Assembly: GCA_019752595.1 (NCBI GenBank)
Contig: JAIELV010000001.1
Span: 120,486-184,485, forward strand
Direction: 5' to 3'
Source of the DNA: Patescibacteria group bacterium
GTDB lineage: Bacteria > Patescibacteriota > Minisyncoccia > Phycocordibacterales > Phycocordibacteraceae
Length of the DNA stretch: 64,000 bases
Shown: positions 5,822 to 49,583 of the stretch, piece by piece
Layout: the number at the start of each line of letters is the position of its first letter
Numbering within the stretch: the stretch's first letter is position 1
The notes under the pieces: generated by a model
Told to the model about the DNA's origin: nothing
What the model saw: the letters and a program-made list of their open reading frames with translations, nothing else
The model's database searches: none
Position numbers and translations under genes: made by a program

Positions 5822-5963
5822 CCACAGCACTTTACATTCTTGAATAATATCGTGCAAATGACTTTACTCCGCTTGAGCGCCTGTTGCTTGCACAGGCTTT
5901 CCCGCGTTCGCATTTAAGAAAATACAAAACGCCCTAAAGAGGGCGATGTATTTTCCTTAAATG

Positions 5964-6227
5964 CTCCGCGGGTAGGACTCGAACCTACAACCAACTCCTT
6001 ACACTGATTCCCAGAGTTTCCTAAGGGCGTGGACTATATCACGACCGGTTCTCGGTCTTTCGGTATCTAGTCTCTACGGCGCTCGGAACGTAAAAACGTT
6101 CCGTTCCCTCGGTGTTAGCGTAGCCGAAGCGTTAGCGTTCACCGATATCCCGAAATTTTCGATACGGATTCCTCCGTAAAGCTGCCTATGCTGACAGGGA
6201 GCTGCTCTACCATTGAGCTACCGCGGA
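5964..6227 (-). tRNA. tRNA-Asn(GTT) interrupted by a group I intron
   Basis: Exon 1 6227-6194 TCCGCGGTAGCTCAATGGTAGAGCAGCTCCCTGT; exon 2 6001-5964 TAAGGAGTTGGTTGTAGGTTCGAGTCCTACCCGCGGAG; spliced anticodon loop CUGUUAA. Confidence 0.93.
6002..6193 (-). ncRNA. Group I intron (192 nt, no ORF) within the anticodon
   Basis: 5' exon ends in U and intron ends in G; P1 CUGU|C pairs with GGCAG with a U.G wobble; R/S-like GAGACTAGA and GATATAGTCC. Confidence 0.9.
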
Positions 6228-6361
6228 ATGAAAGAACTTTTTATTCTGCGGTGCTCAAAAATTGAGCTACCACAACGAGCGAGGAGCAACGCGAACGTGT
6301 ACGTTCATGGTGTCCGAGCGACGTTGGGGGAAGGCTGGCGCAAAGCCAGACTTACCGCGGA
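6228..6361 (-). repeat. tRNA 5'-leader element (tRNA 5' duplication plus conserved 40-nt motif)
   Basis: Starts TCCGCGGTA; motif at 6319-6280 is shared with 36397-36436. Confidence 0.8.
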
Positions 6362-6469
6362 ACAGGGGTAATAGTACTTAAAAACGAGCCTTTTGCCAAC
6401 AGAGGTTCTTAATAAAGAATCAAAAAACCGTCTCTCTGAAAACACCTCGAACGTTGCTATAGTTTCTAC

Positions 6470-36315: not shown

Positions 36316-36359
36316 GTGAGGTAGGAAAGTTCGTCGCTTTTGTGGTATAAAAATGTTTC

Positions 36360-36439
36360 GGCCCTAGACGCTCCTGCGGAGCTTAATAGGGCTGGCACTC
36401 GGACGGCATGAAAATAAATTTTCGCGCCGCTCCTCGTTT
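36360..36439 (+). repeat. tRNA 5'-leader element (GGCCCTA duplication plus conserved 40-nt motif)
   Basis: Lies between the TGGTATAAA -10 box and tRNA-Glu; motif shared with 6319-6280. Confidence 0.8.
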
Positions 36440-36511
36440 GGCCCTATCGTCTAACGGTTAGGACATCGCCTTCTCAAGGCGGTAATCGGGGTTCGATTCC
36501 CCGTGGGGTCA
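36440..36511 (+). tRNA. tRNA-Glu(CTC)
   Basis: GGCCCTATCGTCTAACGGTTAGGACATCGCC-TTCTCAA-GGCGGTAATCGGGGTTCGATTCCCCGTGGGGTCA cloverleaf. Confidence 0.95.
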
Positions 36512-36695
36512 TGCCGTAAAGAAACGCGCCTGTTCATCAGGCGTCTTTCTTTATGGCATTATGATCGCCTGAAGGCGAGAATCGAAAGACGGAGCGAGCG
36601 TGGCGAGTGAGTCGGGGTCGAGGGCACTTAGTATTTTACGAGCGCTAGGAGTAAAATACTTAGTGAACCGTGACCGATTCCCCGTGGGGTCACCA
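36512..36695 (+). mobile_element. Miniature insertion at the tRNA-Glu 3' end, bounded by an 18-bp direct repeat
   Basis: CGATTCCCCGTGGGGTCA at 36494-36511 and 36675-36692; the second copy is followed by CCA. Confidence 0.75.
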
Positions 36696-49358: not shown

Positions 49359-49583
49359 CTAAGCTCCCAAAATACGTTTCTTAAGTCCTCTCCAAGCGCT
49401 GCCATAATACTTAAGTTTCTGCTCTCTATCTCGCGCTGCGGCCTGACTTTGGTAGCTTTCATAGTATAGAAGGGTATATCCTGGTTTTTTATTTGCATGC
49501 TCTCTGAGGCGCCGCTCAATATCGTTAGTATATCCGATGTAATATTCACTCGCACTGTTTTGCAAGATGTATACATGATGCAT
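49359..49583 (-). CDS. GIY-YIG nuclease family protein
   Basis: VYIL...YIGYTNDIERRLREH...YYE...A..RE..LK. Confidence 0.9.
   Translation of the reverse strand: MHHVYILQNSASEYYIGYTNDIERRLREHANKKPGYTLLYYESYQSQAAARDREQKLKYYGSAWRGLKKRILGA

Follow-up and report, generated by a model that had tools for sequence, protein, structure and literature searches.

The leaders of two tRNA genes in the window, i.e., the 64,000-nucleotide stretch of Patescibacteria DNA that was analyzed, harbor members of an element family that is real, well delimited and previously undescribed, and that behaves as an ends-only single-stranded-DNA transposon with an unusual, target-rebuilding end. The elements share a fixed anatomy with covarying stems, are found at filled sites with empty counterparts, form tandem arrays and are inserted in frame in pilin genes. 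Opinion is about evenly balanced, in our judgment, on the reading that they are non-coding insertion elements moved as single-stranded DNA by an enzyme acting in trans, where the site is chosen under the guidance of an internal heptamer (X') and nt 1-7 of an entered tRNA gene are rebuilt. We put forward only tentatively the more far-reaching proposal that a re-programmable 7-nt guide in the folded single-stranded unit, served by a Patescibacteria enzyme, both selects the target and rebuilds the acceptor strand of any tRNA gene that is entered. No description of the element was found in the portions of the literature that were covered. An initial reading of the sequence (below, the first-pass annotation) knew of no named family, and Rfam agrees: only tRNA was matched across the window at the gathering score, and no family was matched on eight element loci at E-values up to 5.

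On the tRNA-sense strand, a unit consists of the left flank X1, followed by TA with a small hairpin (hp1), T(G/T/C), X', a core and X2, after which a second TA is found. The element, which encodes no protein, is 72-85 nt long, mostly 72-76 nt. The core, a hairpin of 46-50 nt, displays TCRYTC on each arm; the opposite strand reads GA-RY-GA, i.e., two tandem GA pairs that enclose two Watson-Crick pairs. Covariation, which had been proposed from two loci, is borne out: core pairing is 93.8% in 16 copies of the genome from which the window derives, with double changes at 12 of 13 pairs, and 92.3% in 116 distinct copies from congeners outside the training set, as compared to 0 of 500 shuffles and 27-60% in slid controls (the copies are related, so that shuffle controls overstate the result). 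The covariance model was built on the core only, with the 16 copies as training rows and the X'/X2 stem outside the model. Terminal inverted repeats are absent: across 57 copies, 0-5 of 10 terminal positions match, most often 2.

At the tRNA-Asn locus, on the minus strand, a -10-like box (TACTAT, 6371-6376), whose function is presumed from its sequence, lies upstream of X1 (6355-6361), which corresponds to nt 1-7 of a partial upstream tRNA-Asn copy, is identical to 6227-6221 and forms the left insertion flank. The whole element would occupy 85 nt (6270-6354), as judged from the family junctions. It is composed of hp1, which starts with TAAG (6330-6354), X' (6323-6329), which is complementary to X2 but not to the tRNA start, the conserved core (6277-6322), which displays the tandem GA pairs when read on the plus strand, antisense to the tRNA, and X2 (GTTGTGG, 6270-6276), a near-default own end of the element; GTCGTAG or GCCGTAG is found at this position in the Asn loci of four congeners. 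The remainder of the partial tRNA copy (nt 8-16) and its reverse complement follow at 6244-6269. What had been taken for a degenerate 5'/D-arm copy is thus the element end GTTGTGG together with nt 8-16 of the split partial copy. The tRNA-Asn(GTT) gene is real, but a 192-nt intron (6002-6193, an ARAGORN intron call, likely group I) between anticodon positions 35 and 36 splits it into exon 1 (6194-6227) and exon 2 (5963-6001), which is why ARAGORN misses the gene or labels it Thr. From hallmark motifs read in its sequence, and its terminal G, we take this intron to be group I-like; Rfam left it unmatched. Introns of this kind have reportedly been described from Patescibacteria; similar ones of 192-201 nt are found at congener Asn loci, and a tRNA-Met(CAT) with a 258-nt intron lies at G000:C1:526637-526966 (minus strand). 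An intron stem at 6110-6080 was considered as a relative of the core and dropped, as the covariance model gives no match there.

At the tRNA-Glu(CTC) locus, on the plus strand, an extended -10-like box (TGG TATAAA, 36343-36351), recognized from sequence and spaced as in empty loci, precedes X1 (36360-36366), the presumed original nt 1-7 of the tRNA. Here, TA constitutes nt 6-7 of X1 and the entry point is therefore shifted by 2. The small variable hairpin (36367-36386) is followed by X' (TAGGGCT, 36387-36393), which complements the tRNA 5' strand and is not a copy of the 3' strand, and by the core (36394-36439), which is flush with tRNA position +1 and shares 40 identical nt with the copy before tRNA-Pro(GGG). 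The tRNA itself spans 36440-36511, with nt 1-7 equal to X2. Contigs from four runs in two studies span this leader, two of which bridge leader and tRNA, making an assembly artefact unlikely; one second-study contig displays 17 differences across 787 nt.

Much of what the first-pass annotation had reported about these two loci is reproduced. The Asn (6319-6280, minus) and Glu (36397-36436, plus) 40-mers are identical at 30 of 40 positions without gaps, above the 24/40 reached by the best non-family position in a scan of both strands of the whole 903 kb. The ten differences are, as described, mostly compensatory: six form three compensatory pairs, two convert a C/T mismatch into G-C, one is compensated just beyond the 40-mer and one falls in a loop, as read from the sequence. 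Copies of the tRNA 5' ends are present (TCCGCGGTA at 6361-6353 for Asn, GGCCCTA at 36360-36366 for Glu), each preceded by a -10 box, 9 nt upstream in the former case (6376-6371) and 8 nt in the latter (TATAAA, 36346-36351). The restriction of the motif to two tRNAs was mistaken, because the identical 40-mer is also found before tRNA-Pro(GGG).

The genome (903 kb in three contigs) harbors 40 plain and two intron-containing tRNA genes and about 21 copies of the element, 10 of which are flush with a tRNA +1 position. The covariance model yields 21 matches at E-values up to 0.05, including the 16 training rows. In addition to tRNA-Pro(GGG), the 40-mer scan found copies before tRNA-Lys(CTT) and several remote from tRNAs, and reading of all tRNA flanks in this genome revealed looser relatives flush with Leu(TAG), Phe, Arg(CCT), Arg(GCG), Asp, Met, Lys(TTT) and Glu(TTC). 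A tRNA-blind structure descriptor (two tandem GA motifs and a closing stem) gave six matches, all 1 nt from a tRNA start. All 12 congeners have matches to the core model, as do 3 of 8 additional genomes of the order, 24 of the 151 sampled from the class and 5 of 151 sampled from the phylum, where some samples include the window's own genome and only a fraction of the candidates was scored per genome. A pattern scan of the GTDB collection gave four true matches, in records of Ca. Saccharibacteria and Ca. Paceibacterota, and two by chance. Viruses yielded no element match; six of 92 looser viral pattern matches received weak model scores, and these six, together with six more, were inspected, lacked the fold and looked like chance occurrences in GC-rich coding DNA.

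Among congeners, the model identified 121 copies in 82 fetched loci, 118 of which were analyzed (one truncated copy, one of 117 nt and one duplicate were left out). Sixty are flush at +1 of 24 tRNA types, 29 reside within 150 nt of a tRNA, in arrays or partial tRNA copies, and 29 are found elsewhere, at least two of these at tRNA remnants that carry no ARAGORN call. Arrays are head-to-tail with a spacing of 72-76 nt. In all three site classes X' and X2 pair at on average 6.0-6.1 of 7 positions, as compared to 3.0 with swapped partners. X2 is followed by TA in 88 of the 118 copies and by T in 112.

Comparison of filled and empty alleles indicates which of the two heptamers is old. Among 29 other tRNA-Glu loci of the genus, three are filled, with a different core type; 15 share the upstream Mur ligase gene in the same orientation, and 12 of these 15 are empty. 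A -10-like box was called at most 22 nt from +1 in 13 of the 29 loci, at a distance of 8-10 nt in 12 of them, while the box in the window lies 8 nt before X1. Because the spacing to X1 matches that in empty loci, X1 would be the ancestral tRNA start, for which X2 substitutes as the first 7 nt. The two are identical at 6-7 of 7 positions in 46/60 flush, 12/29 near and 7/29 other congener copies (control 1-5%). In flush copies TAAG is found after X1 even where the tRNA has TG or TC at this position, which assigns the A to the element. In G011, one copy of a repeated site is empty. At Asn, the element split a partial upstream gene copy and kept its near-default end, as it did at the Asn loci of four congeners, and at two further congener Asn loci it is found in the D-loop, between G and TA. 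Of the two suggestions made in the first-pass annotation, a small mobile element is supported by the filled and empty alleles, the tandem arrays and the in-frame pilin insertions. That it targets tRNA 5' ends with target duplication holds in part: tRNA starts are entered, but the upstream copy is the old start and the downstream 7 nt are borne by the element, and the two copies disagree at Asn, in pilins and outside the genus.

These data suggest how the element may spread. It would enter precisely before a TA dinucleotide without true target duplication and, at tRNA genes, supply the first seven bases from its own end, X2, at sites that are likely chosen by pairing of X' with the target. A single base separates the default end, GYCGWAG, from those of the tRNA starts that belong to Thr(GGT), Thr(CGT) and Arg(CCT), which would allow harmless entry there, and Thr genes are the most frequent hosts (11 of the 60 flush congener copies). 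Joint drift of X' and X2 could then let the element step to tRNAs with similar starts; near-identical locus pairs within a genome join sites where X differs by 0-2 nt in five of six cases. The like-X pairs and the preference for Thr support stepwise, match-guided spread, with which guidance by an enzyme, recombination and later rewriting are all compatible. One pair, in G007, differs at 6 of 7 X positions, and the Glu and Pro copies described above combine an identical core with different X and hp1; core swapping or later rewriting accounts for these cases more simply. X1 may persist because, in the transcript, its pairing with X' leaves the acceptor stem free; the predicted fold of pre-tRNA-Glu, with X1:X' paired and the cloverleaf intact, agrees with this.

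A guide-free alternative, which we consider unlikely, is that default-ended copies insert between a purine and TA, after which template switching in the two hairpins overwrites first X' and then X2 on the basis of X1 and thereby repairs the tRNA. Template-switch mutagenesis is a known process, and imperfect inverted repeats are formed by X1-hp1-X' as well as by X'-core-X2. In favor of this scheme, X' at wobble sites of the acceptor stem agrees with the complement of the 5' strand in 12 cases and with the real 3' strand in 5. Default-ended copies have, in addition, entered partial tRNA duplicates (Asn, Leu(CAG), Val, Lys), either between nt 7 and 8 or within the D-loop, and are followed by an intact gene, as would be the case for unrepaired intermediates. 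However, a single-copy essential gene would have to undergo two rewriting steps, no clear half-way state (X' equal to X1 with a default X2) was seen when the 118 copies were read by eye, and near-identical copies mostly link sites of like X. Also quite unlikely is a scheme where rare founding insertions spread from tRNA to tRNA by short-homology recombination or gene conversion with no dedicated enzyme. It is supported by units that are identical, or nearly so, between isoacceptors sharing a start (Ala/Ala, Pro/Pro, Lys/Lys), by the regularly spaced arrays and by the empty outcome of the enzyme searches discussed below. Against it, the element has entered many unrelated sites (pilins, stop codons, intergenic regions) precisely before TA with a homology of just 1 nt, and its GA motif is invariant, both of which point to recognition by a protein.

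Away from tRNAs, 11 prepilin-like genes in five genomes hold the element in frame, as 27 codons in 8 of the 11. The insert is preceded by (G/A/D)-(F/M)-T and ends in a rebuilt (G/A)-(F/M)-T-L, patterns that were set after the translations had been seen; neighboring pilin paralogues lack the insert. The Pfam N_methyl model matched two of three filled and the one empty pilin protein tested. Three copies in the window's own genome begin at a stop codon. Outside the genus, none of the 32 examined copies is located at a tRNA start; they reside in AT-rich, mostly intergenic spacers, frequently inside TATAAT-like boxes. In five of these genomes (G014, G015, G047, G049 and G071) X2 and X' are constant across loci while X1 varies, and X2 and X' therefore travel with the element; X1/X2 identity outside the genus is no higher than in a within-class control. 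In pilins and at Asn, X1 matches X2 at the last base only, from which it follows that 7-nt pairing is not required. The junctions have only (G/A)TA in common in pilins and at many intergenic sites and 4-9 nt elsewhere, where a short target duplication and alike cleavage sites are indistinguishable; they were called in 124 of 146 copies, with some calls visibly too long. In 24 of 25 non-tRNA congener junctions, X2 ends in the same base that precedes the left TA (control 22.1, nearly all G), and in other families both of these bases are mostly A. The pilin and intergenic junctions imply that little is needed beyond a purine before TA.

These sites bear on the other suggestion of the first-pass annotation, i.e., a leader RNA that controls tRNA processing, with X' switching between X1 and the acceptor strand. 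The sense RNA folds well (z of -3.0 for Glu and Pro), X1 is retained in most flush copies, and the X1:X' and X':X2 pairings are mutually exclusive. Nevertheless, we regard this explanation as highly unlikely. The motif also occurs independently of tRNAs, since 29 of 118 congener copies, like all 32 examined outside the genus, lie away from tRNA 5' ends, and the pilin, stop-codon and intergenic copies mean that the element is not a tRNA-specific regulator. Orthologous loci are mostly empty, as at Glu, and different tRNAs are occupied in each genome; the orientation in pilins is antisense, and the conserved purine pairs are found on the strand opposite to the leader transcript. A secondary effect of the element on tRNA processing is possible.

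The pattern of mismatches points to which strand is structured. The inner GA pairs are present in 114-116 of 116 rows, and the non-Watson-Crick core pairs, read on the GA strand, are GT (113), AC (63), AG (21), AA (17) and pyrimidine-pyrimidine (10). X-stem mismatches read G-A 36 times on the GA strand and 3 times on the other, and mismatches in the core and at position 5 of X are, when read on the GA strand, purine-purine or G-T far more often than when the sense strand is read; X-stem G-T pairs are unbiased (19 on the GA strand, 26 on the other). No single transcript accounts for the GA strand, since it is opposite to the transcript at tRNAs and stop codons and is the coding strand in pilins. 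Tandem GA pairs are stable in DNA, and the simplest account of these sequence patterns would be that the GA-rich strand, antisense to the tRNAs, is the one that folds and likely moves as single-stranded DNA. Against this account stand the unbiased G-T pairs of the X stem and the energy models, which fold both strands alike at Glu and Pro. The GA strand is leading in 12, lagging in 6 and unclear in 1 of the copies in the window's own genome, a distribution that is confounded with tRNA orientation. Hardly any credence can be given to the idea that the GA-rich strand is a retron-like, reinserted cDNA of the leader transcript, which it complements at tRNAs and stop codons, because it is the coding strand in pilins and a reverse transcriptase is absent from this genome, which is rated 100% complete.

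The enzyme that would act in trans on the folded strand is predicted to be an HUH transposase, IS200/IS605- or RAYT-like. Searches for a co-distributed nuclease or reverse transcriptase, as had been proposed, revealed no linked gene, the main weak point of this reading. Y1 transposases gave no match in 6 of 24 element-bearing genomes, and the element was found beside none of 32 Y1 loci (30 of 53 matches and two in the window's own genome) and none of 30 GIY-YIG loci examined out of 74 matches. One GIY-YIG locus with strong model matches was set aside, as these form an array in a tRNA-Arg leader, some 390 nt away from the gene. Small GIY-YIG genes are frequent in the genomes studied, with four in that of the window; one at 49410-49583 (minus strand) in the window has short inverted flanks that are unrelated to the element. 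The window's own genome harbors no TnpB and one tyrosine recombinase, which has no link to the element. Across this genome and the loci fetched, the one candidate for a split or cargo-bearing element was a spurious pairing of two separate copies, none of the seven true matches among 11 metagenome matches is a cargo-bearing or split form, and no excision joint was seen in contigs. Two RAYT-like Y1 genes encoding about 230 residues, at G000:C1:591206 and C3:22035 (L050, L051), are each flanked by a palindrome of their own; that of the former is also found near tRNA-Leu(TAG) and tRNA-Pro(TGG).

In IS200/IS605 elements, guides at the hairpin foot pick the cleavage sites and can be changed to retarget an insertion that is strand-specific and duplication-free, as stated in the portions of PMC8266576 and PMC7290912 drawn on here. 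According to the same portions, PATEs (ends-only elements derived from IS200/IS605) and IS608 resemble the present element in several respects: it is protein-less, comprises two hairpins, is structured on one strand, lacks terminal inverted repeats, would insert without true target duplication and has conserved stem irregularities as well as similar short junction sequences (nTAC or nTAT on the GA strand). Unlike in PATEs, the two hairpins are dissimilar and a parent IS or TnpA was not found, and membership in this group is unproven. The putative guide is 7 nt long, central and variable, while that of IS608 is described there as a fixed tetranucleotide at each end, and, unlike in IS200/IS605, the element end replaces a functional piece of the target. 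Among the features of IS200/IS605, the lack of terminal inverted repeats and a structured strand with hairpins at both ends are present (by computation), and ends shared with an autonomous tnpA(+tnpB) element were not found (0 of 32 Y1 loci flanked, no split form).

REPs and REPINs with their RAYTs share short palindromic repeats, tandem clusters and stop-codon and intragenic copies with the element (sections consulted of PMC8266576 and PMC3733652), and RAYT-like genes are found in 18 of the 24 element carriers. In contrast to REPs as described in those sections, copy number is low and the GTAG (or CGTC) tag is not found at the 5' foot of the hairpin on the structured strand; GTAG occurs only within the default X2, on the 3' arm of the non-GA strand, and is lost in tRNA-adapted copies. 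The RAYT genes here are flanked by other palindromes, and rebuilding of a tRNA start is not mentioned for REP/RAYT in the sections used (PMC8266576, PMC3733652). In-frame insertion in protein genes is shared with Rickettsia palindromic elements and intragenic MITEs, as far as the excerpts of PMC10969869 and PMC3733652 extend; on that description the present element is about half the size, and its in-frame copies concentrate at prepilin cleavage codons, where they rebuild G/A-F-T. A MITE of the inverted-repeat type was discounted, as the 15-30-bp terminal inverted repeats of the definition excerpted from PMC3733652 are absent. The Ssn GIY-YIG system with its NTS/SRM hairpins likewise involves hairpin repeats that act as single-stranded DNA (PMC11893778, in part). 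It was rejected as a relative, with the SRM pattern in 0 of 118 copies and 0 of 30 GIY-YIG loci flanked. Integrase-borne islands enter tRNA genes and restore the tRNA 3' end. The element similarly enters a tRNA gene carrying a mending piece, but this piece concerns the 5' end and comprises 7 nt rather than tens, integrase and cargo are lacking, and one family serves 24 tRNA types.

If the reading of X' as a re-programmable guide is true, the element would be the 5'-end mirror of integrase islands without a protein of its own, and a new class of minimal DNA-guided mobile elements. If X' sets the target, dozens of guide variants for single-stranded-DNA insertion have been explored naturally, the fixed-tetranucleotide rule of IS608 is extended and the enzyme is of possible use for short, precise insertions. 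By rebuilding, the element has found three safe harbors, i.e., nt 1-7 of tRNAs, the cleavage codons of prepilins and, as it seems, -10 boxes along with stop codons. In the window's own genome a quarter of the tRNA 5' ends are element-derived, with 70-80-nt leaders that need to be processed off, and long pilin leaders in these bacteria call for caution in annotation.

Several arrangements at other tRNA loci were recorded. In G027 (L055) a Mur ligase 85% identical to that in the window is faced by tRNA-Glu as a result of a local inversion, with an empty leader. An array of X1-hairpin-X' units without core lies upstream of tRNA-Arg(GCG) at G000:C1:703480-703650 (L009), and in G008:C30 (L147) a 3'-trailer element is interrupted by a copy of the present element; the insertion site has the sequence of the X2 of this copy, with which tRNA-Arg genes also begin. 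At G000:C1:507130-507430 (L015) the loop of a hairpin that resembles the element contains an intact tRNA-Gln(CTG), possibly captured as cargo, and the hairpin itself is inserted in the D-loop of a decayed tRNA-Gln copy. Finally, a different structured element, whose purine-rich strand is the sense strand, is found behind tRNA-Glu in the window (36513-36692, plus strand); it ends with a 17-nt copy of the tRNA 3' end (36676-36692, equal to 36495-36511), and similar elements follow Gln, Trp, Asp, Met, His and other tRNAs.
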